A DNA stretch of 64,000 bases from Candidatus Blackallbacteria bacterium (GCA_051715345.1 JBPXJQ010000040.1:92-64091); one strand, 5' to 3'; positions 3-33,912 are shown, numbered from the stretch's first letter. Notes: a model not told the origin generated them from the sequence alone. Translations and numbers: made by a program.

Positions 3-2534
3 CAGGTAAAGGATTGTGGCGAGCCGTGGGACACGCTTTTGAGCGAGGCCTTGGCCATTCAGCCCGCTCAGCGACCGCGGGAGATTGGGGTATGGTGGGG
101 CAAAAGTTTTGGTGTTGACTCAGCAGGTGGAGGAGAGAAAAAATGTCCTTATTGTGCTGAACTAATCAAGACCGAAGCCATAAAATGTCGGTTTTGTGGA
201 GAGTATTTAAACCTTTCTTCGCAATCAAAAGGTTCAGAGCAGATACGTGATTCAGAAAAAATAAGAGAGCAAACCTATCCGACTTCTGATTTTCAGACGC
301 TTATTGGAATCGACTTTGGCACATCATCCTCAAGAGTGTCTATTTTTAAAAATGGTAAACCCATTATTATCCCAAATCAATTGGGAGAAAAACATACCCC
401 TTCTATGATTGCCTGTACTCCCAGTGGAAAGTGGCTGGTAGGAGAGGCCGCGAAGAAACAAATGATTGAAAACCCCCAAAATACAATTTGGGGAATGAAA
501 CGCTTAATCGGTCGCAATTGGCAAGAAACTAAACAAGAACGAAAATATGCGCCTTATCAAACCATCCATCAAGTTGATAATTCTGTCAATCTTTATCTGA
601 TGGGTCAAAACTATTCTTTAGCAACACTTATAGCCATGTTACTGAGCAAATTAAAGCAAGATGCAGAAGTCTACCTCGGTGCAAAGGTCTCCCAGGCAGT
701 GTTGAGTAAACCAAGCTATTTTGATTATGCTCAATGTTTGGCTCTCCAAGAAGCCTGCAAAATTGCAGGTTTAGAAGTCTTCCGGTTTGTTCATGAAGGC
801 ACGGCAAATGCGTTGGCTTATGGTTTTCATAAAGAAGAAGAGGAAACGATTCTGATTTTTGATTTGGGCGGCGGAACCCTTGACGTTTCCATTCTGGAAC
901 TCGGTGATGGTGTCTTTGAAGTCAAAGCCACCAGTGGGAATAACCACCTCGGTGGGGATGACTTTGACGAGCGGATTATCGACTGGTTGATCGATGAATT
1001 TAAACGCGATCAGGGCGTGGATCTGTCCAAAGACAAAATGGCCCTACAACGTTTAAAAGAAGCCGCAGAAAAAGCCAAAATTGAGCTGTCCTCTGTGTTT
1101 GAAACCGATGTCTATCTGCCGTTTATCACCGTAGGTCAAACCGGCCCAAGACACTTGAATGTCAAATTGACCCGCGCCAAATTTGAAGCTATTGCAGCCG
1201 ACCTGATTGAAGGTACCATGGGGCCCCTGAGGGCAGTCATAGCAGACTCCGGCCTAAATGCCCGCCAGATTGACAAAGTGATTCTGGTCGGGGGATCTAC
1301 CCGTATTCCAGCTGTTCAGAAAGCGATCCGCAAACTCGTCAATAAAGAACCCTTCAAAGGGGTTAATCCCGATGAAGCCGTTGGCATGGGTACAGCCATT
1401 CAAGCAGGTATATTCAGTGGTGAAGTCAAAGACGTGCTCTATCTGGATGTCACCCCACTGAGTCTCGGACTTGAAACCCTCGGCGGTGTATTTACCCGCA
1501 TCATTGAGCGCAACACCACCATTCCGACCAGCAAAAGCCAGATCTTTTCAACGGCCTCAGATGGTCAGACCAGCATTGATGTTCAGGTCTTACAAGGGGA
1601 ATGTGAAAGGGCCTCAGACAACAAAGCCCTGGGCAGCTTAACCTTCGAAAATATCCCTCCCGCTCCGCGTGGGATTCCCCAAATCGAAGTCACCTTTGAC
1701 ATCGATCCCTGGGAGATTGTCCACGTCAAAGCAAAAGACCTAAGCACAGGCTCTGAAAAAAGAATCGTCTTATCATCATTAAACAAAAGTTCATACAAAT
1801 ATATTCCCGTCCCGAATCACTTATCATTAGCAGAATGTGCAATACAACGAGTATTTCAAAACAGCCTGAAAATGGACTTTGTATTGATCGACTCAGGACA
1901 TTTTATAATGGGCAGCCCGGCAATTGAGGCCGGAAGATCAGAAGATGAAACCCAGCACCGTGTGACTTTGACGAATGGTTATTATCTACAAACCACGCCT
2001 GTGACTCAAGGCCAATGGGAGGCACTGATGAGGAACAATCCCAGTCATTTTAAAGGAAAAGATTTGCCTGTTGCGAATGTGAGCTGGAATGATTGCCAGG
2101 ATTTTATTAAGAAACTGAACCAAAAGGGAGAGGGCCAATACCGTTTGCCGACAGAGGCCGAGTGGGAATACGCTTGCCGAGCGGGGAGCCAGAGTGCCTA
2201 TTGTTATGGAGATACTATTGCGACATTGGGCAAGTATGCCTGGTATGTTGGTAATTCAGATGGTCATACGCATCTTGTCGGAGAGAAAAAGTCCAATGCA
2301 TGGGGCCTCTATGATATGCACGGCAATGTCTGGGAGTGGTGCCAAGATTGGTATGGGGCTTATCCTACAGCATCGTTGAAAGACCCGCAAGGCCCTGATA
2401 ATGGCGATACCCGCGTTCATCGCGGCGGTAGCTGGGGCGATGTAGCTCACCACTGTCGCTCTGCGTATCGCGGAAGGTGCCACCCTGAGTACGGTCACTA
2501 CGGCCTGGGGTTTCGTCTTCTCAGGTCATTGTAA
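3..2534 (+). CDS. 5'-partial multidomain protein: end of probable Ser/Thr kinase domain, Zn ribbon, Hsp70/DnaK-like domain (no lid), FGE-sulfatase (SUMF1) domain
   Basis: Frame is open from position 3, upstream of the TTG at 39. Zn ribbon [20 protein letters not shown]; Hsp70 motifs [31 protein letters not shown]; FGE motifs [40 protein letters not shown]. Confidence 0.85.
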
Positions 2535-2567: not shown

Positions 2568-3251
2568 TTACCCATTTTCAACCGAAGAGGGACTGGTTTT
2601 GATTTTGGAGTTTCTAATGACCATTTCTTCCAAGGTCGCTGCCCCTCTCCGTTCTTGAAGACCGCTTAAAGAAATTGCCCCCCTTTTCATTTGAATCGAA
2701 AAACCTTTGCCTTGGTTGGCATAGGCTTGTTCAAGTAAAATGGGTGTGTAGCGATTACTGAGACAGTGAATTTGTTGATTACTTGAGCCACGCCAGGGCA
2801 ATGTGTCATCGTACAGAGCCGAAATAAAGGGACCATCAACCAACAGATCGGTAAGGCTCAACATGGCCATGACTTCTGGTTTATTTTGCTTTTTAAGATA
2901 TTTAAGGGTATAGCCTGTATAAACCATGCTGGATAACCCCAGGTCAAGCACAGTCTCCAAAAGAGGTAGTAAGGCTTCTGCCTGTTCTGTGGGTTCTCCT
3001 CCCAGAATACTGATGCCTTCAACAGGCTCTGAAGCCAAATGAACGATTTGTCGCAAGCGATTTTCAATTTCTTCGGTTGTATAGGTATAACCGCCTTCTG
3101 TATCCAAAAAATGTGGGTTAAGACAGGTTTCTGTACAGCGTAAGCGGCATCCCTGTGTCCAAAGACCAATACGCCATCCCGGCCCATTGTGCAAGGTGGC
3201 TCGCAAACTTTCAAGCGGATGACCCAGTTTTAGAAGGAGATGCGCTGACAC
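2568..3251 (-). CDS. NrdG-like radical SAM protein (4Fe-4S single cluster domain)
   Basis: NGPGWRIGLWTQGCRLRCTETCLNP, GISILGGEP, YTGY, DLLVDGPF, WRGSSNQ. Confidence 0.85.
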   Translation of the reverse strand: MSAHLLLKLGHPLESLRATLHNGPGWRIGLWTQGCRLRCTETCLNPHFLDTEGGYTYTTEEIENRLRQIVHLASEPVEGISILGGEPTEQAEALLPLLETVLDLGLSSMVYTGYTLKYLKKQNKPEVMAMLSLTDLLVDGPFISALYDDTLPWRGSSNQQIHCLSNRYTPILLEQAYANQGKGFSIQMKRGAISLSGLQERRGAATLEEMVIRNSKIKTSPSSVENG

Positions 3252-3257
3252 GGTGAT

Positions 3258-5057
3258 TTAACCCAACCCTAATTGGGAATAGGCTGCTATCCCCGTTTCA
3301 ATATCAACCCCTTCAATGGTCATGAGTTTCTCATTACTCATCTGCTCCACATTGCTTTTGGCCAGTCGGGATTTATACGCGCTTTCTGTTTTTTCAAAGA
3401 ATTGCCGCACATTTCTGCCGTTGCCAAAATTGTCTCCTTTTGTTTCGTGCATCCTCTGCAAAAATGTTTGGGCTTTGTGTTGGGCCTCATCTGTCATGTG
3501 ATATCTCTTTTGAACCATGGAAACAAAGATCTCAAAGAGCTCCTCATCATCATAGTCTTCAAAATCGATATATTCTGTAAAACGGCTTTGAAGACCCGGA
3601 TTGGCGTTGATAAAGGTTTTCATTTCCAGTTTATATCCGGCCACAATGCAGATGAACTTGCCATGATCATCTTCTAAACGTTTCAGCAAAGCATTGATCG
3701 CTTCCATCCCAAAAGCATCATTTTCTCCCTGAATTAGATCATAGGCTTCGTCAATAAATAGAACGCCCCCCATGGCTGAGTCGATCACCCCATGAGTTTT
3801 TGGAGCTGTATGCCCTACATACGCGCCCACCAACCCAGAACGCCCCACTTCCACCAGCTTGTTTTCGGGCAGAACACCCATTGTTTTAAAAATATTGGCC
3901 ATTAATCGGGCCACCGTGGTTTTACCTGTCCCCGGATTACCTGTAAAAACATAATGAATTCCTGAATCCGGATTGGCTTTCATGCCATCGAGCAATTGAT
4001 TGACTTGCTGCTTAACACCTTTGAGACCAATCAGCTGATTAAGTGTTGACAGGGCTTCTTCGATTCCATTTTTTTCAGTTGTAATTTCTATCTTTGGAGA
4101 ATCATTTTTTTTATTATCAGAATTTTTTTTAAAGAATATATCCATTAGAGGTTTTTTTTGACCTTCTTTTTCATTTGAATATACATTATTCTTGATTTGC
4201 TGTTGAGAATTGGTTTGCATTTTAATGTCGTTAAATGAATCAGAGGGAATATAGCTCCATAGAATTAGGGTTTGATTGTCCGTTTCCCCATTTTTCACAT
4301 ATGTTTCCATTATTTTGTCAGCTATTTCATTATCTGAATGGCATGTTTTGAATATCTCTTCTATTTGGAATTCCCTTAAATTACCGATCACGCCGTCACT
4401 ACACATCAAAAGTTTATCTTGAGGTTGCAGTTCGCATTGAAAGAAGATCTTATCATCACTTGGAATCGGTTTATCCATCCCCACATAAAACTCCAAAGTA
4501 CTTTTACCTTCATGAAAATAGTACATTTCAGGCGATATCACGCCAGACCGTACTAATGCCCCCGCAACGGTATGTTCTTTGGTCACAAGCTCAAGTTTTT
4601 GAATTGCATGATGATAGATATAAACTGGGCTGTCACCTAAGTAAATGCCATATATTTTATTTCCATCAATTAATACGATGTCCAACGTGCTGCCACATTT
4701 TCCCCAATTATTGTTTGCAGCCATTTTTGCGACAAATTGATTACTCAGATCCAATGCTTCGCGCAAGGTCCCTAAAACGAGATTTGAATCAAATGGAGTA
4801 GGAGCGTCAACCCTATTCAGTACTCTTTTTAAGACAAAATTATCAAAGCACTTGTTAGCTGTTTTTACCAAGGCCTGTTGACTGGCCAGCTCTCCATGTT
4901 CGTGCCCTCCCATGCCATCGGCCAAAGCGAATAGTATGACAGACCGTTCACACCAAGCCGGCATAAACTCAAAGCCCATGACACTATCTTCATTATTCTC
5001 TCGACCATTGACAACGGAGCGCACAACCCATCGACTAAACTGGTTGGATTCTGCCAT
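3258..5057 (-). CDS. PP2C Ser/Thr phosphatase fused to SpoVK/CbxX-type AAA+ ATPase
   Basis: PP2C motifs ADGMGG, LGDS, CSDG, DNQT; AAA motifs LIGLKGVK, GNPGTGKTT, LFIDEAY, NPGLQSRF, FGNGRNVR. Confidence 0.9.
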   Translation of the reverse strand: MAESNQFSRWVVRSVVNGRENNEDSVMGFEFMPAWCERSVILFALADGMGGHEHGELASQQALVKTANKCFDNFVLKRVLNRVDAPTPFDSNLVLGTLREALDLSNQFVAKMAANNNWGKCGSTLDIVLIDGNKIYGIYLGDSPVYIYHHAIQKLELVTKEHTVAGALVRSGVISPEMYYFHEGKSTLEFYVGMDKPIPSDDKIFFQCELQPQDKLLMCSDGVIGNLREFQIEEIFKTCHSDNEIADKIMETYVKNGETDNQTLILWSYIPSDSFNDIKMQTNSQQQIKNNVYSNEKEGQKKPLMDIFFKKNSDNKKNDSPKIEITTEKNGIEEALSTLNQLIGLKGVKQQVNQLLDGMKANPDSGIHYVFTGNPGTGKTTVARLMANIFKTMGVLPENKLVEVGRSGLVGAYVGHTAPKTHGVIDSAMGGVLFIDEAYDLIQGENDAFGMEAINALLKRLEDDHGKFICIVAGYKLEMKTFINANPGLQSRFTEYIDFEDYDDEELFEIFVSMVQKRYHMTDEAQHKAQTFLQRMHETKGDNFGNGRNVRQFFEKTESAYKSRLAKSNVEQMSNEKLMTIEGVDIETGIAAYSQLGLG

Positions 5058-5095
5058 ATTCTCACCTTTAATAATTTCTCTCTTTAAAAAAATAA

Positions 5096-5911
5096 CTAAT
5101 GGGTGCCTGCACTGATCGTTTTACCCAACGACATCAGAACTTTTTCAAAATTATCTGACCGCTTACTAAAATCATCACCCTTTCCGAGGTCGAAAACCAT
5201 ACCACTGCCAACTTCCTGGGTGAGGCGAAGATAAACATTGGCCCAGGGTTCCGAAGGGCGTGTGACAGCATAGAATTGTGTCAGTCCGACACTCTTTATT
5301 GCTGCAATAACTTCATCGATGGATTTTGTTTCACGATCGGGAATATGAGGAGGGGCATCCGTGATAAGAACAACACAGCGATTTTTTTCTTGGAAAGGCT
5401 GTTTTAATGCAAGCATTATGGCATCTAGACTGCTTTCTCTTTCATCATCCCGGGTAAATTTATCACGACCACCTTCAGCTTTGAGGCAACTGGCTATATT
5501 TCTAAAAATTTCAGGCTGATTGGTAAAAACCTCTCCATTAAAGCGATGCAAAATATGTTCCTGATTCACGGTTCGATCTCTGAACTCTACCAACCCAACA
5601 CGTGCCCGAACTTTTGCTTTTTCAATCGAGTTGACAAAGTTGACGATCGAGTTTTTAATTGCTTCAATTTCCCCACCCATACTGCCTGTGCAGTCCAGGA
5701 CAAACATGATATCCACCCGACGTCCTTTTTCAATGTCTCCCATCATCTCCGTAAGAGCACCCAGGTCTATATCTTTTTTTCCCCGTTCCGATTTAGTCGC
5801 AGGTGGGGTATTTAAGTTTGGCTTGGGAGTCGAACTTAATGAACTCCCACATGAAGAACAAATAGGGGTACCGTCCTCTTCCAGTTGAGAACAATTTGGA
5901 CACTCTAACAT
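5096..5911 (-). CDS. Zn ribbon plus vWA domain protein
   Basis: CPNC...CSSC N-terminus; MIDAS-type DIMFVLDCTGSM, VGLVEFRD, VVLITDAPPH. Confidence 0.85.
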   Translation of the reverse strand: MLECPNCSQLEEDGTPICSSCGSSLSSTPKPNLNTPPATKSERGKKDIDLGALTEMMGDIEKGRRVDIMFVLDCTGSMGGEIEAIKNSIVNFVNSIEKAKVRARVGLVEFRDRTVNQEHILHRFNGEVFTNQPEIFRNIASCLKAEGGRDKFTRDDERESSLDAIMLALKQPFQEKNRCVVLITDAPPHIPDRETKSIDEVIAAIKSVGLTQFYAVTRPSEPWANVYLRLTQEVGSGMVFDLGKGDDFSKRSDNFEKVLMSLGKTISAGTH

Positions 5912-6005
5912 ACTGCAGACTCATCCTTTACATCTTGTATTATTTTTTTAAGAGAACAAATCGCAAATAAATATCTGACCTTTACCCGTTTCAGAGGACA
6001 CACAG

Positions 6006-6857
6006 TTAAGCAACTTTTCGCTGCTCGAACTGCTCTGGGCTGAGATAGCCCAAAGTTGAATGAAGTCTTTGCCGATTGTAAAAAACCTCAATATACTCGA
6101 AAATTGTGCTGGAGGCCTCTTTCCGAGACTCAAACACTCTATCACAACATTCCAGTTTTAGAGTGCCAAAAAACGACTCAGAACACGCATTGTCATAACA
6201 ATTCCCCTTTCTGCTCATACTTTGAGCCATTCCATAGCCCTTCAAATGCTCTTGAAACGATTGCGAAGCATATTGTGAACCACGATCTGAATGAAACAAC
6301 AGCCCCGGCTCTATACTTCTGCGTTGCAGAGCCATATCCATAGCGCTTGTGACCAGCTCTGTTTCCATTGTTTGAGACATACTCCAACCAACCACTTTTC
6401 GAGAACTCAAATCCAGTACAATAGCCAAATAAAGCCAGCCTTCACGAGTTGGAATGTACGTTATATCTCCAGCCCAGACACGGTTCATGTCCATAACTTG
6501 AAACTGGCGGTTCAAGAGATTTTCAGCCACTGGCCGTGAATGGTTTGAATCTGTTGTGCTTACTCGCTTTCGCTTCAATTTTGCTCTGAGATTGTTCTCT
6601 CGCATAATCCGAGCCACTCGATTGTGCCCCACAAAGTAGCCTTGTTGCCGCAAACTGGCTGTAATACGAGGGCTTCCGTAGCATTTACGGCCTTGGTCAT
6701 AGATTTCTTTTACCTTGGTCAGCAAAAACGAATTTTCCTGAACGCGTTTGCCAGGTAAACGTTTTAAATGACGGTAAAAGCCACTCTTACTAACTTCTAG
6801 CAATTCTGTCATGCGTTGCACCTTAAATTGCTTGGTATGGTCTGAAATCCACTTCAT
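6006..6857 (-). CDS. IS3-family transposase OrfB (DDE integrase core)
   Basis: YGSPRI, WAGDITYI, LDLSSRKVVGW, FHSDRGSQY, GNCYDNACSESFF, YNRQRLHSTLGYLSP. Confidence 0.95.
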   Translation of the reverse strand: MKWISDHTKQFKVQRMTELLEVSKSGFYRHLKRLPGKRVQENSFLLTKVKEIYDQGRKCYGSPRITASLRQQGYFVGHNRVARIMRENNLRAKLKRKRVSTTDSNHSRPVAENLLNRQFQVMDMNRVWAGDITYIPTREGWLYLAIVLDLSSRKVVGWSMSQTMETELVTSAMDMALQRRSIEPGLLFHSDRGSQYASQSFQEHLKGYGMAQSMSRKGNCYDNACSESFFGTLKLECCDRVFESRKEASSTIFEYIEVFYNRQRLHSTLGYLSPEQFEQRKVA

Positions 6858-7196
6858 ACGTACTTGTGATTCTTCTGGGAGAAGATCTCTAAGGCTTTTT
6901 TTGCCTCAGTTGTTGGCGACAGAGGAGCCTTACAACTGTGGACCGCATAGCGCTATTTCCCTATCCTCCTTAAGGTTGGCGTTTTCTCGGCGCAACCGGG
7001 CCAATTCAGCTTCTTGGGCGGTCATATTGCCATTGCCTCTAAAAGCCTCTTCTCCAGATTGTTTCTGCTCTTGGCGCCATCGGTATACCATGTTTGATGG
7101 AATCCCAAGACTTCTTGCGGCCTGGGCACCACCCACTTGCTCTGCAAGGGCCAAGGCTTCCAGTTTAAATTCTTTACTGTATTTTTTATTTGCCAT
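6854..7196 (-). pseudogene. IS3 OrfA, disrupted by a 49-bp insertion (premature stop at 6930)
   Basis: KYSKEFKLEAL HTH and ELARLRRENANLKEDREI zipper. The expected tail KKALEIFSQKNHKYV* resumes out of frame after the insert. Confidence 0.8.
6903..6951. repeat. 49-bp hairpin repeat element, copy inside IS3
   Basis: GCCT-CAGTT-GTTGGCG-ACAGAGGAG-CCTTAC-AACTG-TGGACCGCATAGC; matches copies at 26694-26858. Confidence 0.8.
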
Positions 7197-7265
7197 GTTT
7201 TCTTTACCTTCTGTTTTAAGTGTAAACCTCTCTTCTCAGGTGTCCACTTTTTTAGGTAAAGGTCA

Positions 7266-7691
7266 GTATGGCATTGACCCGATGCATGTCCCAAACGGCC
7301 TGTAACAGTTGGCGAAAGATTTCTTTCTTTTGTTCATTGTTTATTACTTTGGATTCAATTTGCGATTCGAGGTTACTGCCCTCAATATATTCCATTAAAA
7401 CCAGATAAATCTGTTCCGTCCAGCGATTAAATCCGAGAGTCTTTGCGATATGGTCTGAGGGAATTTTGAGTGTTGCTTCTCTTTCTACCCGTTGGGCCAA
7501 ATTGCCCAAATCCCCTTTCCCGCTCAAATTAATGCATTTTAGAGCGTATTTACATTTGAATGGGTATTTTCTGCCAGCCAAACCGAACCAAAAGCGCCAT
7601 TACCTAAACACTCACCCAATCGAACTTCTTTTACTGGATGGATATCGACAGGGATAAGTCCACCCTTAAAAAGATTTAGCGTTTTAGACAT
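7266..7691 (-). pseudogene. Ser/Thr protein kinase, frameshifted near 7550 and truncated by IS3
   Basis: ATG at 7691 gives ...LGNGAFGSVWLAENTHSN (Gly loop), then a stop at 7539-7541. Another frame continues KYALK...EREA...LVLMEYIEG...QLLQAVWDMHRVNAI and ends at the IS just before the HRD motif. Confidence 0.88.
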
Positions 7692-9840: not shown

Positions 9841-12231
9841 ATGTCGCAAAAGAAATACTGTATCAACTGTTTTTGTATCCTCAATGCTGAGGTGACGATC
9901 TGCTCGCGCTGCAAATACACCCAGGTCCTCGAAGAAAGCCCACTCTATCTCAAGCCCCCTGTGCGCTTGATGGACCAGTATTATGTGGGCCGTGTGCTCG
10001 GTCATGGGGGGTTTGCGATTACCTATCTGGCCTATGACCGCAATTTGGGCATGTTGGTGGCGATCAAAGAGTACTTCCCGATTGAATTTGCGACCCGCGA
10101 CAGCGAAGATCTCTCAGTGGTGCCTTTTATTGGCAAAGCGGCAGAACTCTTTCAGGCTGGCAAAGACAAATTTTTGAAAGAGGCCCGCCTGCTGGCCAAT
10201 TTCCGCAGCCCGAACATCGTCAAAATTCGCCAGTATTTCACAGCTTATAATACCGCATATTTTGTGATGGAGTATCTCACGGGCCAGACCCTGAACCAAT
10301 ACATCAAAGAGCAGGGGGGGAAATTGCCCTTTGCCCGTGTACGCGAAATTTTAATGCTTTTGCTGGATGCCCTCGACGAAGTGCATGAAAATGCAATTTT
10401 TCACCGGGATATTAAACCGGATAATATCTACCTCACAGCCAAAGGGGACCCAATTCTGCTGGATTTTGGCGCAGCCCGCCAGAGTCTCTCTTCGCAGACC
10501 ACCCATCTGCTCTCGTTTTTAACCCCCGGTTTTGCAGCGGCCGAGCAATATTCCACCAATGGCGTTCAAGGCCCCTGGACAGATATCTACTCCTTGGCGG
10601 CCACGGTCTATTACGCCCTGACAGGCGTCTTGCCGCCGGTGCCCTCCGATCGCTTGCTCGGAGATGCAGAGCTGATTGCCCCCTCCAAACTGGGTTCGGA
10701 TATCTTGCCCCGCGACGAAGAATGGCTGTTAAAAGCCCTGTCTTTGCAGTGGAGTCAGCGTCCAGGCAATATCAAAGCCTGGCGCGCAATGATCGAAGAG
10801 CCGCTCAACAATATCCATTTTGACATCGACACCCAAATTCGCAATGCCGAAGAAAATTTCACCAAAATTGCAGTATTGCCCAAACTCACCCATCAAATTC
10901 TCACCCCCCAAGACGAGCAATTGATCTATGATTCTGCGGCATTTATGGCCATTTCTGCCGAACGGGTCAAGGCCCTGATCGAAAAGGCCCTGAATGATAC
11001 CGGTTCCAAACGGGGGCATACTCCCTGGTGGGAAGCCGAAGAGGCAAAAAAAGAAGCAGAGCAAAAACGCCTGGAAGAAGAAGCACAGCAAGAATCCGAT
11101 CGCCTGCTCGAAGAACAGGAGAAACAAAAACAAGCCGAAGAAATCGCGAAAAGGGAAGCCGAGTTACAACGCAAAGAAGCCGAATTGCGCCAAAAAGAGG
11201 CCCATTTGCGCCGGGAAGAAGAACTGCAGCGCCGGGAAGAGGAGTTGCGCCAAAAAGAAGCCGAATTGCTGCGCAAGGCCCAAACCCCAGCAGAGGCAAC
11301 ACCCCCTGCCCCGCCCCCCAAAGCCGCTCAGCGCAATCTTTCGAATCAGGATCTTGAAGATCTGGCAGATCTCTCTGATGAACTCGAAGATCTGGTCAAA
11401 CTCTTTGAAACCCCCTCTGCGGATCCGATTAAAGCGCCACAAGCGTCACCCCGTGCCACCCTCGATGCCCATTACGCCAAATTGGCAAGCAAACTCTCAG
11501 ATATTCCCGTTTCAAAAACCCGCTTGATTGTGCCGGGTCCCTTGCCCTCACGCATCAGCAATGGCTTGGGCATGGATTTTGTCTTGATCACTCCCCCACC
11601 CCCCGACTCAGCCAAGGCATTTTCGGTGGGTCCCCCGGAGTGGGGCTTTCAACCCCTCTCACAACGCGCCTTTTATCTGCAGGCCACCCCCGTCACCCAG
11701 CGCCATTGGCAGATGTTGATGTACAACAATCCCTCGCAATTTAACGAAGATCCGCTTTTGCCCGTTGAGCAAGTCAGCTGGGACGATTGCCAGCTCTTTG
11801 TGATTCGCATGAATCAATTCCAAGAGGCCCATTATCGCCTGCCGACCGAAGTGGAGTGGGAATATGCCTGTTCGGGCTGCAACCAAAAGAAATACCTCTT
11901 TTGTGAATCGGAATCTGAACTGGGTCACCATGGCTGGTATGCCGAAAACGCCCATCAGCACACCCATCCGGTGGGCATGAAACGCGCCAATCCCAATGGT
12001 CTGTTTGATGTTCTCGGCAATGTCTGGGAATGGACCCAAGATCCCTTCATCCCCCTGACAGAACCCCAAGCGCCAGGCCCGACGAATCGCAAACGCCTGC
12101 CTCAGCGCACGGCCCGAGGCGGGGGTTGGAACACCTCTGCAGCCACTTTCCAGGCCCGGGCCAGAACCGGTGAAGTGCCCCATCAGCGCAAACCCGATCT
12201 CGGCTTTCGACTGGTGATTGAGATTGTCTAA
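9841..12231 (+). CDS. Ser/Thr kinase with Zn ribbon, coiled coil and FGE-sulfatase domain
   Basis: CINC..CSRC; LGHGGFAITY, VAIKEY, HRDIKPDN, LLDFG, DIYSL; EAELRQK heptads; YRLPTEVEWEYAC, GNVWEW, LGFRL. Confidence 0.92.
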   Translation: MSQKKYCINCFCILNAEVTICSRCKYTQVLEESPLYLKPPVRLMDQYYVGRVLGHGGFAITYLAYDRNLGMLVAIKEYFPIEFATRDSEDLSVVPFIGKAAELFQAGKDKFLKEARLLANFRSPNIVKIRQYFTAYNTAYFVMEYLTGQTLNQYIKEQGGKLPFARVREILMLLLDALDEVHENAIFHRDIKPDNIYLTAKGDPILLDFGAARQSLSSQTTHLLSFLTPGFAAAEQYSTNGVQGPWTDIYSLAATVYYALTGVLPPVPSDRLLGDAELIAPSKLGSDILPRDEEWLLKALSLQWSQRPGNIKAWRAMIEEPLNNIHFDIDTQIRNAEENFTKIAVLPKLTHQILTPQDEQLIYDSAAFMAISAERVKALIEKALNDTGSKRGHTPWWEAEEAKKEAEQKRLEEEAQQESDRLLEEQEKQKQAEEIAKREAELQRKEAELRQKEAHLRREEELQRREEELRQKEAELLRKAQTPAEATPPAPPPKAAQRNLSNQDLEDLADLSDELEDLVKLFETPSADPIKAPQASPRATLDAHYAKLASKLSDIPVSKTRLIVPGPLPSRISNGLGMDFVLITPPPPDSAKAFSVGPPEWGFQPLSQRAFYLQATPVTQRHWQMLMYNNPSQFNEDPLLPVEQVSWDDCQLFVIRMNQFQEAHYRLPTEVEWEYACSGCNQKKYLFCESESELGHHGWYAENAHQHTHPVGMKRANPNGLFDVLGNVWEWTQDPFIPLTEPQAPGPTNRKRLPQRTARGGGWNTSAATFQARARTGEVPHQRKPDLGFRLVIEIV

Positions 12232-12806: not shown

Positions 12807-13568
12807 ATGCCTCTCCCCTATCGTCAATTGCCCGTTTTACTCCTACTGACTGTCTTGCTCCAGGCCCAGACAGTCCCCCTGACGGGCGTGATCGAGCAAA
12901 TTACCTCACAACAGCAGCTGAATATTGCTTCGGGAGAACTCAAAGGGCAAACGGTGCTGCGGCTCAGCAGCGTGCCTGCCAAAACCATGCGGGTCTATTT
13001 TCCCAGCAACCGGGTCTTGAACCAAGTCAGTTTGGGCGGCCAGCCCCTGCGCTTTAACCACCAGGGTGGCTTTTTGACCATTTTTATCGAAGGCCAGAGT
13101 TCCGCCCCCAATCAACCCCAAAACATGCGTTTGAGTTATAGCTCCAAACAAGAGAGTGTCCAAGGCCCCTCTCCACTTTTTGAACTCGAAAATTACCGCT
13201 TAAATTATGTGCTACAAACCGCTTCGGGTGTGTTTAAGGCCCAGAGCCACTTTCAACTCAAAGGCAAAAAAACGGCAGCCTCAGGCATGCCCACATTGCC
13301 TGCGCCCCGCACCATTCACTTGGCCCTGAACCGGGTCTTTACCGTCGAAGCGGTTCAAAGTGGGGGCCGGGCCTTGGCCTTTCAGCACAGGCAAGGCCAA
13401 CTCAGAATCCAATTGCCAGGCCCACTGACCGCCGGTCGTTCGTATTCCCTCGAAGTGCGCTACAGTGGTAAACTTCCAGCAGGCAATAAATACCAAATTT
13501 GGGACATGCCCTTCGGTGGCGGCCCCTATTATTATCCCGCCCATCCCCTTTTGCCTGGAGCTTATTAG
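12807..13568 (+). CDS. Secreted protein with two tandem domains resembling the M1 aminopeptidase N-terminal beta domain
   Basis: Signal peptide after ATG 12807; internal repeat NRVL.QV...G..L.F.HQ.G.L.I....Y.S; no HExxH. Confidence 0.55.
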   Translation: MPLPYRQLPVLLLLTVLLQAQTVPLTGVIEQITSQQQLNIASGELKGQTVLRLSSVPAKTMRVYFPSNRVLNQVSLGGQPLRFNHQGGFLTIFIEGQSSAPNQPQNMRLSYSSKQESVQGPSPLFELENYRLNYVLQTASGVFKAQSHFQLKGKKTAASGMPTLPAPRTIHLALNRVFTVEAVQSGGRALAFQHRQGQLRIQLPGPLTAGRSYSLEVRYSGKLPAGNKYQIWDMPFGGGPYYYPAHPLLPGAY

Positions 13569-13579
13569 GAGCCTCTCAA

Positions 13580-14917
13580 ATGTCTGCCACAGCCTCAGAA
13601 ACCCCTTTGCCGACGATCTCTGCCCCAATTAAAAATCAGCCCCGCAGCGTGGCTTTTTTGGCCCTGGGCTGTCGGCTGAATCAGGCAGAAGAGAGCACCT
13701 ACCGCGAACACAGCCTCGAAAGTGGCTGGAAGATCGTGGATTTTCGCCAGGTGGCAGACATCTATATCGTCAATACCTGTGCTGTGACCCTCGAAGCCGA
13801 GCGGCAATCGCGCCAAATGATCCGCCAGGCCCGGCGGCGCAACCCGCAGGCCACGGTGGTGGTAACCGGCTGTGCTGGGCGCTCCTTGCAGGGCCACCCC
13901 GAAATGGAGGGTGTGGCGGATCTGTATATTCCCAATCTCGACAAAGAGCAATTGGTGCCTCAATTGCGGCAGTTTTTGGGCGAAGAGTTACATCCCCACT
14001 TTGAGCGGCCCTTTCCGCCTGTGGCGGAGTCCCGCACCACACGCCTAAATCTCAAGGTCGCGGATGGCTGTTTTGAATCCTGCGCCTTTTGCATTATTCC
14101 CGCCCGGCGCGGCACGGTGCGAAGCTTGCAAATCGACGAGATTATCAAACGGATTCAATTGGCTGAGACCCTGGGCTACCAAGAGGTGGTCCTCACCGCC
14201 GTGCATCTCGGGGCCTTGGGCCACGAGCAAAACCGCCACGATCTGGACTTGCTCTTTGAGCGCATCAACAGCGAGACGACGATGCCCGCTGTGCGCCTGA
14301 GTTCGATTGACCCCCACGAAATTTCCCCACGCATGATCGCGGCTCTGGCCGCTTCGCCCCGGCTCTGTCCGTTTTTGCATATTCCGATTCAAAGTGGCTC
14401 CGATGCCATCTTGCAGCGCATGCGCCGCCGCGATACCTCCGCCGGCATTCGTGAGACAGTCTTGGCCCTCAAAGCCGCGATTCCCGGCATTTCGCTGACG
14501 ACAGACATGATTGTCGGTTTTCCGGGTGAAACAGATGAAGATTTTGAAGCCTCTTATGCCCTGATGGCCGAACTCGGCATTCACAAAATCCACGTCTTTC
14601 CTTTCTCAGTGCGGCCTGGCACCCGTGCCGCATATATGAAAGACAAATTGCCCGAGGCCCTGATTCAGGAGCGCACACAAAAATTGCTCGAACTCAGCCG
14701 TGTCCAGCAAAAGGCCTGGATTGAGAGCTGGCAGGGCAAAGAGGCCCCGGTTTTGATCGAAACGATCACTTCAGATGGGGTGGGCAAAGGCTATACGCCT
14801 CATTATTTGCGCGTGCAGGTGCCCGGCTGCAGCCAAGCGGATCACAATACCTTTTTGCCTGTCACGATCACCGGTGCACTTTGGGAGCAGGAAGTGGCGC
14901 TGGGGACACGACTCTAG
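13580..14917 (+). CDS. mtaB: tRNA methylthiotransferase MtaB
   Basis: LGCRLNQAE, VNTCAVT, VVTGC, radical SAM motif GCFESCAFC, HIPIQSGSD, HVFPFSVRPGT; ATG 13580 follows AGGAG. Confidence 0.88.
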   Translation: MSATASETPLPTISAPIKNQPRSVAFLALGCRLNQAEESTYREHSLESGWKIVDFRQVADIYIVNTCAVTLEAERQSRQMIRQARRRNPQATVVVTGCAGRSLQGHPEMEGVADLYIPNLDKEQLVPQLRQFLGEELHPHFERPFPPVAESRTTRLNLKVADGCFESCAFCIIPARRGTVRSLQIDEIIKRIQLAETLGYQEVVLTAVHLGALGHEQNRHDLDLLFERINSETTMPAVRLSSIDPHEISPRMIAALAASPRLCPFLHIPIQSGSDAILQRMRRRDTSAGIRETVLALKAAIPGISLTTDMIVGFPGETDEDFEASYALMAELGIHKIHVFPFSVRPGTRAAYMKDKLPEALIQERTQKLLELSRVQQKAWIESWQGKEAPVLIETITSDGVGKGYTPHYLRVQVPGCSQADHNTFLPVTITGALWEQEVALGTRL

Positions 14918-31774: not shown

Positions 31775-32902
31775 CTACACCACATTCAGACACAGCCCCT
31801 CAAAATCCAAAGCCAACTCAAGCGGCGCGATCCCCTGCGCACGCCAGTTTTGAGAGAGTTCTGCGAACAAGGCGGGATCACCCAAGGCCAGGCCGCAGTC
31901 TCCGCCCCCTGCCCCCGAAGATTTGGCTGCCAGCCCTTGGGCCTCTGCAGCCGCAATCAAAGCGACCAGGGCCGGCGTCTCGATCGGTGAGAGAAAATCT
32001 ATTTGCAACTCCTGCAAGAGGTGGCGGTATTGACCCACTGCTTGCAAGAGGGGAGCGTTCTGCCCCTCGATGAGAGCAGAACGGGCAGCTGAGGTGGCTG
32101 CGTTGGCGCTGAAGAGAAAGCGCATCCAGCACTCAGGGTCTTTTTCTTTGAGGTAGCTGATCTCTTCGAGAAAATCCAGGGTGGCAGCAGGATGGCCTGT
32201 CCAGCCCACTTTCAGGCCCAAGTCTGAAGGCCAGGGCAGTTTTTCAATGCCTAATAAGGGCCAATTCACTTCCAGCAGCTTGTTCAAGGGCAAAGCACCT
32301 GGTTTGAGCCAGGAGGCGTCATAGCGCCGGTAACAGGTCACACTGCCAAAGATCACTGCAGCCAGATCGGCGCCACTGCCCCCGCCCTGTGAGCCGCCCT
32401 GTGAGCCGCCCTGTGAGCCACTGTGGGCCAGGGTTGCCAATTTAAACAGTTTTAAACGGGCTTCGTGGCTTTCAAAGGTCTCGCCATGAAAGGCCAACAC
32501 CGCCGCCAAAACGGCCACGGTGACGGCTGCACTGCTGCCCAGCCCCAGTTTGGCCCCGCTGCTGTGCAAATCCGACTGCAGGTGCAGTTGAAAGGGAACA
32601 ATCGCCTGATCCAAACTGCCCAGATAGGCAAAGGCCCATTGCAGGGCCTCACCAACAAAATTGAGTTTGTCGGACTGATTTTCAGCAGGTGTTTGCCAGA
32701 CAATCTGGCCCTGTTCATAACCAAAGCCGATCACGGCTTCTGGCAGCAAATCTGTTTGCAGCGAAAACTGCTCAGCGGGGGCAATTTCCGCATCTAAATA
32801 GCGTTGAAAACTCAAGAGCAAGGCCTGACTGCCAGGCTCTAAAATGGCATATTCGCCCAATAAAAACAGTTTGCCAGGCACCCGCAATTTGAGCGATTTC
32901 AT
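31775..32902 (-). CDS. mvaK2: Phosphomevalonate kinase (GHMP family, Gram-positive type)
   Basis: PGKLFLLGEYAILEPG, KLGLGSSAAVTV, GWTG.PA.T, KSSGAGGGDCG; start overlaps the mvaD stop (ATGA). Confidence 0.88.
   Translation of the reverse strand: MKSLKLRVPGKLFLLGEYAILEPGSQALLLSFQRYLDAEIAPAEQFSLQTDLLPEAVIGFGYEQGQIVWQTPAENQSDKLNFVGEALQWAFAYLGSLDQAIVPFQLHLQSDLHSSGAKLGLGSSAAVTVAVLAAVLAFHGETFESHEARLKLFKLATLAHSGSQGGSQGGSQGGGSGADLAAVIFGSVTCYRRYDASWLKPGALPLNKLLEVNWPLLGIEKLPWPSDLGLKVGWTGHPAATLDFLEEISYLKEKDPECWMRFLFSANAATSAARSALIEGQNAPLLQAVGQYRHLLQELQIDFLSPIETPALVALIAAAEAQGLAAKSSGAGGGDCGLALGDPALFAELSQNWRAQGIAPLELALDFEGLCLNVV
32382..32417. repeat. 12-bp tandem repeat x3 (CCGCCCTGTGAG) within the kinase CDS
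   Basis: Encodes SQGG three times, just before GSGAD. Confidence 0.85.
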
Positions 32903-33912
32903 ACAGCCGGCACCAGAAACGCACCGGGCCCCGGTCGGCAGGGAATGAGGGCCTTGAGTTCGTGCCAATGGGCCAAGGCAGCCTGAAAACGGGGCCAATC
33001 GCGTTCTTGCATCAATACCTTGAGGTTGGGTCCGGCATCTATCGTGGCATAACATTCCAAACCAGATTGCCGCAATTCCCGAATCCGGGCCAATAATTCC
33101 AAGGTTAAAGGCATCCAGTAGATCACCGCCGGGCGCGAGGCCAGGGCTGTGGCATGCATTTTGAGCGCATTGTGTTCCATCAGCTCACCCAGGGCACTAA
33201 AATCGCGGGAGGAAATCGCTTGCCGCATCTGTGCCAGATCTTCGTCGATTGAGGCCAACCAGGCAGGATACAGGGGCGAGGTATTCACGGTTTGGGCCAT
33301 GCCGTCGCCCGAAGACAAAGCCTTGGGCAAATCGTTTAAAACCAATACGGCCATACAGAGATCCCAGTCGGGTTTTTCCACGAGGGGAATGGCATAAGAA
33401 TCAGCCCCATCAGCGGCTTCTCCGCGCTGCCACTCGGCAAAGCCGCCAAAGAGCGAGCGACAGGCCGAGCCTGAGCCTTGCCGGGCCAGCTTGGAGAGTT
33501 CTGGTCGAGAGCGTTCAAGACCTGCGGCGGCAGTTGCCGCCAAGGCCAAGGCCGCAAAACCCGATGCCGAGCTGGCCAAACCGGCCCCAGTGGGAAAATT
33601 ATTCTCACTTTCGATCTTGGCGGCACCAAGATAAGTCTTGCTGGCGCCTGCTGCTTGGTGGCGCAGCAAATCGAGCAAACGCTGAACCTTCAGGCGCATG
33701 GGTTCGCTTGCCAATTGCCCATTGAGCCAGAGTTGATCGGGCCCATTTGATTCGCTGTAGGTCACACGGGTGCGGGTCCAGAGTGCATCAAGGGTCAGCG
33801 AAATGCTGCCATTTTGGGGCAATTTGAGGGCCTCGTCGCGTTTGCCCCAGTATTTGATCAGGGCAATATTGCTGTGGGCCTGGGCCAAGGCACTTTTTAC
33901 AAGTTGTGTCAC
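32899..33912 (-). CDS. mvaD: Diphosphomevalonate decarboxylase
   Basis: NIALIKYWGK, NNFPTGAGLASSASG, GSGSACRS, TIDAGPN. Confidence 0.95.
   Translation of the reverse strand: MTQLVKSALAQAHSNIALIKYWGKRDEALKLPQNGSISLTLDALWTRTRVTYSESNGPDQLWLNGQLASEPMRLKVQRLLDLLRHQAAGASKTYLGAAKIESENNFPTGAGLASSASGFAALALAATAAAGLERSRPELSKLARQGSGSACRSLFGGFAEWQRGEAADGADSYAIPLVEKPDWDLCMAVLVLNDLPKALSSGDGMAQTVNTSPLYPAWLASIDEDLAQMRQAISSRDFSALGELMEHNALKMHATALASRPAVIYWMPLTLELLARIRELRQSGLECYATIDAGPNLKVLMQERDWPRFQAALAHWHELKALIPCRPGPGAFLVPAV

Follow-up and report, generated by a model that had tools for sequence, protein, structure and literature searches.

Gene content and composition of the locus

The locus described here lies at positions 2568 to 7691 of a 64,000-nucleotide (nt) stretch from a Candidatus Blackallbacteria bacterium (GCA_051715345.1 JBPXJQ010000040.1:92-64091), the whole of which is referred to as the window. 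It contains a radical S-adenosylmethionine (rSAM) gene, a gene in which a PP2C phosphatase is fused to an AAA+ ATPase, a gene encoding a zinc (Zn) ribbon and a von Willebrand factor A (vWA) domain, and the remnant of a serine/threonine (Ser/Thr) kinase gene beside an insertion sequence (IS). The features are as follows.

2568..3251, minus strand: NrdG/PFL-AE-like rSAM gene, 227 amino acids (aa), Pfam Fer4_12/Radical_SAM
3258..5057, minus strand: PP2C fused to an AAA+ of the SpoVK/CbbX/EccA class, 599 aa in a single open frame (Pfam, NCBIfam)
5096..5911, minus strand: Zn-ribbon and vWA gene, 271 aa, Pfam Zn_ribbon_3 and VWA_4/VWA/VWA_2
5912..5975, minus strand: spacer of 64 bp from the vWA start to the IS end, with a promoter-like site at 5939-5966
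5976..7265, minus strand: IS3-family insertion sequence, 1290 bp, with orfA at 6930-7196 and orfB at 6006-6857
7266..7691, minus strand: Ser/Thr kinase remnant, glycine loop and N-lobe only

An earlier note, made from the sequence, had described four co-oriented genes with these domains, and both the minus-strand coordinates and all four domain assignments agree with the open reading frame (ORF) list and the Pfam and NCBIfam scans. The AT-richer composition and close spacing that it reported were likewise recovered. The guanine-plus-cytosine (GC) content is 0.425 over 2568-7691 compared with 0.510 for the 6.2-Mb genome, and by ORF coordinates the gaps are 38 bp between the vWA and PP2C-AAA genes (5058-5095) and 6 bp between the PP2C-AAA and rSAM genes (3252-3257). 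These three genes are uniform in GC (0.40-0.46) and remain intact in this copy. Promoter and terminator scans of the region gave counts not exceeding those of shuffled sequence (14 promoter-like sites observed against 10.1 +/- 3.4 in shuffles), and the site at 5939-5966 is retained as a lead only. Contigs from an RNA library (X6) matched the rSAM, AAA, PP2C and vWA sequences and the kinase remnant at 96-100% identity. Among the read-derived contigs no listed piece spans the PP2C/AAA junction, gaps in their cover being evidence neither way.

Family and distribution of the radical SAM enzyme

The rSAM protein matched Fer4_12 (1.2e-31), a family that an atlas look-up showed to be commonest in Planctomycetota. 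Its nearest curated family was NrdG (TIGR02491), at 97 bits compared with a cut-off of 126.1, and other NrdG models scored lower. The SAM-binding motif GGEP is present, while the cluster motif is CX3CX3C (C35, C39, C43) and not CX3CX2C; a profile alignment with the pyruvate formate-lyase activating enzyme, PFL-AE (E 4e-13), places a one-residue insertion between cysteines 2 and 3. An AlphaFold2 (AF2) model with a pLDDT score (predicted local distance difference test) of 86.6 had PFL-AE (8fo0 and 3cb8) as its best solved Foldseek matches, with QueE and viperin-like enzymes ranking after these.

A protein search recovered a tight set of 72 clusters at 44-57% identity followed by a drop in score. 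All 72 of these closest clusters carry CX3CX3C and the remoter matches carry CX3CX2C; the motif was also found in 18 further loci. Among 1.84 billion representatives searched, 31 of the 149 best that were examined have CX3CX3C, all within the top 36. The subfamily is thus small and rare. In the window's phylum the CX3CX3C form occurs in two of 401 genomes, its own included, and it occurs in one of the 401 genomes of a phylum to which a Gemmataceae genome belongs; none of five genomes of the window's genus has the gene, which is single-copy in the window's genome. Eighteen longer relatives scanned with Pfam included one with DUF5591, which we take to be a domain of tRNA-guanine transglycosylase-like proteins, and there was no informative fusion among the CX3CX3C forms.

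The earlier note had remarked that no glycyl-radical enzyme for such an activase lies in the window, and this extends to the whole 6.2-Mb assembly (93.8% complete), in which the profiles for NrdD (PF13597) and Gly_radical (PF01228) both returned nothing. The glycyl-radical motif was also tried as a marker of substrates in other loci. It gave eight scattered matches against a roughly estimated three expected, of which two were near C-termini and lay in non-homologous proteins, and it was rejected.

A clade of radical SAM enzymes beside AAA+ ATPases

A quick maximum-likelihood tree of 116 rows, from which five rows shorter than 120 aa were left out, separated 20 rows of NrdD-linked and phage NrdG from a 96-row clade that includes the window rSAM (Shimodaira-Hasegawa-like approximate likelihood ratio test, SH-aLRT, 100). 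Within this clade an AAA-like ORF lies beside 59 rows and an NrdD-like ORF within 4 kb of none of the 96. Adjacency was scored as a same-strand AAA-like ORF within 4 kb by a generic AAA profile, and many of the contigs are short. The CX3CX3C rows, which have their own conserved C-terminal extension, form a single 19-row clade that includes the window (support 98). AAA-like neighbours were present in 13 of these 19 rows and in 46 of the 76 canonical rows, the other 30 being without one. Counted by locus, the profile search found an AAA-like ORF in 50 of 95, canonical relatives included; it supersedes an earlier tblastn of 80 loci with the window proteins, which returned no AAA or vWA and is insensitive to AAA. 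The window enzyme is not a ribonucleotide-reductase activase; it comes from an NrdD-less clade that lies beside AAA+ proteins of several classes, and this AAA+/rSAM adjacency is conserved across phyla.

In the 18 further CX3CX3C loci an AAA+ gene is immediately upstream of the rSAM gene wherever the sequence suffices. The AAA part of the window fusion aligns to AAA genes adjoining rSAM homologues, and in five loci (L101, L102, L104, L105 and L108) the upstream gene encodes a SpoVK-class AAA that is 43-49% identical to it by tblastn. The same position is held by other AAA+ classes in L103, L107, L109 and L111, and DO-GTPase2 and DUF4407 proteins are encoded downstream in CX3CX3C loci.

The neighbourhoods of canonical relatives include several genes of conflict systems. 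A Gemmataceae locus (L038) places the rSAM gene next to the Pfam fvmX6, FtsH and fvmX7 genes of the FtsH ternary system, and a cyanobacterial locus includes an EAD10 protein. rSAM relatives occur on conjugative or mobilizable plasmids. On a Moellerella conjugative plasmid the series is an MkoA-like helicase, a PIN protein, a 431-aa protein, an AAA_2 protein and the rSAM, adjoining ArdA, and a plasmid of Calothrix PCC 6303 carries genes for Hsp70, a TPR protein, a canonical rSAM and a double AAA. An operon encoding an HHH_3 protein, a canonical rSAM and an AAA+ protein occurs in Actinomycetota, Melainabacteria and Clostridia (L013, L037 and L042), which hints at a link to nucleic acids.

Three of the CX3CX3C loci (L101, L105 and L107) share an operon of about 9-10 genes and about 10 kb with nearly no Pfam matches. 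It encodes proteins of 770-901, ~520, ~150, ~247, ~160-195 and ~474 aa, followed by an AAA protein of ~600 aa with an N-domain and the rSAM, and after the rSAM come DO-GTPase2-like, DUF4407 and 960-1460-aa proteins. The whole has the look of a large system still to be characterised, and an operon of this type shares only the AAA part of its ~600-aa protein with the window fusion. The N-domain of that protein was considered as a PP2C and discarded, as hhalign aligned the AAA part only. The upstream coiled-coil protein of ~480 aa was considered as a vWA and discarded at an hhalign probability of 0.3%; in an AF2 model the 474-aa protein forms a long coiled coil with a small C-terminal domain, and a structural search returned helical bundles only, with the small domain not covered.

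In the sole other genome of the family with a CX3CX3C rSAM (L088, G019:C228, 2061-6409), the gene adjoins a diversity-generating retroelement (DGR) with RVT_1 and bAvd. This locus also encodes an HRDC protein whose start matches the C-terminus of the formylglycine-generating-enzyme-type sulfatase (FGE-sulfatase, FGS) domain and a 407-aa protein without Pfam matches. The FGS genes of the window were considered as DGR targets and rejected: the genome has no bAvd, its three reverse transcriptases are on other contigs, and the 131-nt near-repeats within their 3' FGS part mismatch at all four bases and not at A only.

The phosphorylation triad in related genomes

Homologues of the vWA protein (48-51% identity) were found in four other genomes of the 401 searched in the phylum, and in all four the PP2C, kinase and vWA genes are clustered. 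The order in these intact relatives is PP2C, a Ser/Thr kinase with a C-terminal FHA domain (STK-FHA), and Zn-ribbon-vWA (ZnR-vWA). Pfam scans of L148 and L150 gave a standalone PP2C of 273-275 aa, an STK-FHA of 398-402 aa and a ZnR-vWA of 274-282 aa. Genes for kinase-FGS or kinase-TPR proteins adjoin the triads (kinase-FGS in L148, L149 and L151), and the kinase-FGS gene at 9841..12231 of the window is of the same kind. The PP2C/STK-FHA/ZnR-vWA triad is therefore genuine and conserved as a cassette. The window's version is rearranged and joined to the AAA+/rSAM pair, a combination not seen elsewhere in the searches made.

The earlier note had regarded the four genes as one conserved, expanded TerY-P operon, and this did not hold. 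The four genomes with intact triads show no AAA+ or rSAM gene in the fetched flanks, none of the seven CX3CX3C-rSAM loci with at least 3 kb of upstream sequence has a PP2C, vWA or kinase gene there, and the PP2C-AAA fusion was seen only in the window's own protein among 120 listed PP2C relatives. Conserved synteny, which the earlier note had made the test of its proposal, was found for the AAA-rSAM pair and for the triad separately and was lacking for the two together. Its wider idea of an uncharacterised AAA+/rSAM system for conflict or signalling still fits the data, without the unity of the four genes.

The PP2C-AAA fusion and the Zn-ribbon-vWA protein

In the fusion protein Pfam places PP2C_2 at residues 20-229, AAA at 370-499 and AAA_lid_6 at 523-586. 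The PP2C part (about 4257-5057) is followed by a low-complexity linker and by the AAA+ with AAA_lid_6 (about 3258-4040). In the translation the Walker A (GNPGTGKT) and Walker B (VLFIDEAY) motifs are intact and the PP2C part keeps its metal-binding motifs, although it scored 131 bits against the Stp1/IreP model, below the cut-off of 230. The AAA+ part resembles the SpoVK/EccA/CbbX class in its single AAA module with AAA_lid_6 and in its intact Walker motifs, but it is no equivalog of these proteins (242, 218 and 209 bits compared with NCBIfam equivalog cut-offs of 423, 467 and 459) and differs from them by its N-terminal PP2C and its rSAM partner. Within this class CbbX activates Rubisco, as NrdG activates NrdD.

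Standalone PP2C relatives align to 4257-5045, which corresponds to residues 5-267 of the fusion, and the 120 listed relatives of the PP2C part range from 329 to 1049 aa. A search with the whole protein was swamped by tandem SpoVK ATPases and is uninformative on the fusion. The vWA protein has Zn_ribbon_3 at residues 1-23 and VWA at 67-213, with a motif of the metal ion-dependent adhesion site (MIDAS) type, DCTGS.

PADLOC v2 contains TerY-P models. The PADLOC check proposed in the earlier note gave no matches for the vWA or rSAM proteins or for the PP2C part, only generic AAA matches for the PP2C-AAA protein, and kinase models (PD-T4-6, mad6 and Stk2) for the kinase stump.

Decay of the kinase gene and the IS3 element

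The earlier note had called this copy disarmed, and the kinase gene is indeed inactivated in three ways, by a frameshift, by the IS3 element and by a deletion past the N-lobe. From the ATG at 7691 the frame runs for 50 codons, including the glycine loop, to a stop, and three-frame translation shows the N-lobe resuming in another frame, which places the frameshift near 7550-7560. The Pfam match (7252-7581) covers only Pkinase positions 24-118. The gene is truncated at 7265/7266, immediately before the catalytic loop, and its C-terminal two thirds are gone; because only 64 bp separate the IS end from the vWA start, the catalytic loop and everything after it must be lost. What remains is 39% identical to the STK-FHA of the L149 triad.

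The element belongs to the IS3 family by its transposase (transpos_IS3 NF033516, 360 bits against an NCBIfam cut-off of 160), its two ORFs and its 11-bp terminal inverted repeats (TGACCTTTACC). No target-site duplication was present at either flank (...CATAC / GATAT...), which fits a deletion adjoining the IS. The assembly contains one copy. An unrelated run (X3) has a 14,871-nt contig on which the element, with identical ends, lies in other surroundings.

The orfA stop (6930) precedes an A-run, CAAAAAAAG (~6895-6902), presumably the usual frameshift site of IS3 elements. Three indels at 6902-6953 distinguish the run X3 copy from that in the window, and the window's copy may itself be damaged. 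A 470-nt contig from run X8 matches 5770-5976 with two differences and continues for 263 nt unlike the IS; it may represent an allele without the insertion.

Comparison with known systems

TerY-P is described in the passages of PMC11090510 devoted to it as a triad of vWA, PP2C and Ser/Thr kinase that is thought to be a phosphorylation switch acting on varied effectors, some versions being stand-alone anti-phage systems (the CoCoNuT paper, PMC11090510, citing Anantharaman et al. 2012 and Gao et al. 2020). The likeness to the window lies in the three domain types within one operon, with the vWA and PP2C domains of the window recognised by Pfam. The kinase differs: in the same account that of TerY-P bears a C-terminal Zn ribbon or OB fold, whereas in the intact relatives (L148 and L150) its C-terminus is an FHA domain and the Zn ribbon belongs to the vWA protein, so that the TerY-P likeness given by the earlier note fails at the kinase. 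In the window, moreover, the kinase is a stump and the PP2C is fused to an AAA+.

The FtsH ternary systems of Kaur et al. 2020 carry, in the sections of that article concerned with them (PMC7159879), a distinctive rSAM that is predicted to modify a peptide effector and is related to the rSAM of Memo-AMMECR1 systems; kinase with PP2C and vWA, Hsp70 and FGS are given there as variable parts of related GTPase-centred systems. The window has a comparable arrangement, in which an NrdD-less PFL-AE/NrdG-like rSAM that may correspond to the one of those systems lies next to an AAA+ and a vWA-type protein. The rSAM linked to fvmX6/FtsH/fvmX7 in Gemmataceae and that of the window fall in the one 96-row clade but in different subclades, the former on a sister branch that is putatively the FtsH ternary rSAM, an identity drawn from these Pfam markers. 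The window vWA is a standard ZnR-vWA, no MoxR match was found among the ORFs located between 1 and 36 kb of the window, and a single SpoVK-class AAA behind a PP2C takes the place of an FtsH-type double AAA, with no fvmX match.

PFL-AE (3cb8 and 8fo0) and NrdG share the fold and the SAM-binding motifs of the window rSAM and are its best matches by sequence and structure. The window enzyme nevertheless falls below the NrdG and PflA cut-offs, has the extra residue between cysteines 2 and 3, stands apart from NrdD-linked NrdG in the tree and belongs to a genome without a glycyl-radical enzyme.

A vWA-STPK-FHA-PP2C operon of Deinococcus radiodurans has been described as a signalling module (bioRxiv 10.64898/2026.01.23.701218). 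Compared by that description only, it agrees with the intact triads of the window's phylum in its four domain types; FHA occurs in it both as a protein of its own and in fusion with PP2C, and the description includes no AAA+ or rSAM. Apart from Kaur et al. 2020 (PMC7159879), nothing on an AAA+-linked orphan activase in defence was found in the parts of the literature that the search covered.

Interpretation of the locus

We read the locus as a horizontally acquired and partly decayed chimera in which a phosphorylation cassette is combined with an AAA+/rSAM output pair of conflict type, with a probability of roughly 0.55. In favour of it are the foreign GC, the patchy distribution of the rSAM, its pairing with AAA+ genes, the conflict-system surroundings of relatives, the prediction of Kaur et al. 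2020, the closeness to PFL-AE and the lack of a glycyl-radical enzyme in the genome. Observed above are which domains are present, how the copy has decayed, the synteny of the two modules taken separately and the clade structure; the conflict role, the class of substrate and the coupling of the two modules are proposed in the following form. The kinase/PP2C pair would set the phosphorylation state of the complex, and the vWA protein would serve as adaptor to the AAA+, which would remodel or unfold a protein or peptide substrate. With its 4Fe-4S cluster and SAM the rSAM would then abstract hydrogen from the substrate presented by the AAA+, in a chemistry that could be of the glycyl-radical type, leading in oxic cells to backbone cleavage, or could be a peptide modification. 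The PP2C-AAA+ fusion would couple the off-switch directly to the motor.

A number of points weigh against this reading. The two modules occur together only in the window: the fetched flanks of the intact triads lack AAA+ and rSAM genes, PP2C comes first in those triads and is last and fused here, and the triads are found among ordinary genes, for example ABC transporter, Fur and pyrophosphatase genes. The fusion itself is confined to a single protein of the 120 PP2C relatives. On the side of the enzyme, the glycyl-radical motif R[VI]xG[YFW] is absent from the proteins of the window and motif searches of the window and the other loci produced no substrate candidate for the rSAM; the CX3CX3C form keeps three cysteines and GGEP, which makes activity plausible, its cluster binding being putative. 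The tree was rooted at its midpoint after a quick search, the generic AAA profile also scored three of the NrdD-linked rows, and the conflict contexts are a collection of individual examples. The RNA-library contigs give a weak hint that the locus is transcribed, and the library may hold carried-over DNA.

Since the modules are joined only here and the fusion is unique, their joining may be an accident of IS-driven rearrangement. In its full form this alternative holds that unrelated modules were merged by such a rearrangement in a decaying island, that the fusion is without function and that the locus is disappearing. It would account for the uniqueness of the fusion among the listed relatives, for a gene order unlike that of the four intact triads, for a kinase gene broken by frameshift, IS and a deletion that shows no target duplication, and for an IS that is known elsewhere in other contexts. 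All catalytic motifs nevertheless persist in the three intact ORFs (227, 599 and 271 aa), their spacing is tight (6 and 38 bp), their GC is even, and RNA-library contigs fall on the vWA, PP2C-AAA and rSAM genes. We consider it doubtful, though better placed than the two alternatives that follow.

It is also conceivable, at lower odds, that the substrate is a nucleotide or nucleic acid, the rSAM performing QueE- or viperin-like chemistry or radical DNA damage and the AAA+ acting as sensor or loader. The operons of HHH_3 and AAA+ with canonical relatives in Actinomycetota, Melainabacteria and Clostridia point this way, as do the position of QueE and viperin-like enzymes next after PFL-AE in the fold search and the DUF5591 domain in one of the 18 longer relatives. 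By both sequence and fold, however, the best match is a protein activase, PFL-AE, and scans of the window and of CX3CX3C loci found no HHH protein.

A further alternative, about equally unlikely, in which the AAA+/rSAM pair matures or repairs a cellular enzyme encoded elsewhere and the triad provides ordinary growth or stress signalling, accords with the nearest characterised families (the enzyme activase CbbX and the glycyl-radical activases), with the setting of the intact triads among ordinary genes and with the description of the Deinococcus operon as a signalling module, but meets a genome in which no glycyl-radical enzyme was found, a very patchy distribution with foreign composition, and relatives that have conflict-system neighbours and lie on conjugative or mobilizable plasmids.

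The chimera with a conflict-type output pair is thus the reading we prefer, and it can be carried further in a tentative way. On this extension, which we consider unlikely, AAA+-coupled NrdD-less rSAMs would be widespread effectors, in which an unfoldase would deliver a phage or self protein, a backbone radical would be formed on it and a site-specific cut would follow in air, as a kill switch. The motor of the window would be gated by Ser/Thr phosphorylation through the PP2C-AAA+ fusion, and its enzyme would use a CX3CX3C cluster site that we found undescribed in the literature searched.

Significance of the AAA+-coupled clade

In textbooks, enzymes resembling glycyl-radical activases are paired with anaerobic metabolic enzymes. 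The damaged and unique copy in the window points to a broad clade of AAA+-coupled, activase-like rSAMs, and this whole clade appears to have exchanged the glycyl-radical partner for AAA+ ATPases in mobile loci of conflict type. It spans Planctomycetota, Cyanobacteriota, Actinomycetota, Bacillota and Myxococcota as well as enterobacterial plasmids, and in what was found of the literature it has one passing mention (Kaur et al. 2020, PMC7159879). Once the substrate of these enzymes is known, new chemistry for prokaryotic immunity or protein quality control could follow. The window adds to the clade a natural PP2C-AAA+ fusion, which points to phospho-regulation of an AAA+ motor, and a subclade whose cluster motif, CX3CX3C, is non-canonical and relevant to radical-SAM enzymology.

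Neighbouring genes in the window

Two genes with kinase and FGS domains lie on the plus strand around the locus.

3..2534, plus strand: gene encoding a kinase C-lobe, Zn ribbon, Hsp70 and FGS domain (Pfam), convergent with the locus, its stop 33 bp from the rSAM stop
9841..12231, plus strand: Ser/Thr kinase-FGE-sulfatase (FGS) gene (Pfam)

The architecture of the first, truncated by the contig start, is unusual: a single protein unites a kinase C-lobe with a Zn ribbon, a complete Hsp70 (643 bits) and an FGS domain. Its frame is open to the first base of the contig, where the sequence resembles kinase subdomain IX, and a kinase N-lobe at the end of contig C8 might be the start of this gene. It is uncertain that the gene belongs to the system.

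A second radical SAM gene at 13499-14917 on the plus strand has the domains UPF0004 and Radical_SAM, a pair that we take to be typical of MiaB/RimO-type methylthiotransferases, and looks ordinary and unrelated. Mevalonate-pathway genes (a diphosphomevalonate decarboxylase-like protein and a GHMP kinase) are located at 31775-33912 on the minus strand, and beyond them are genes for urocanase and a glycoside hydrolase, in an ordinary chromosomal context of higher GC.

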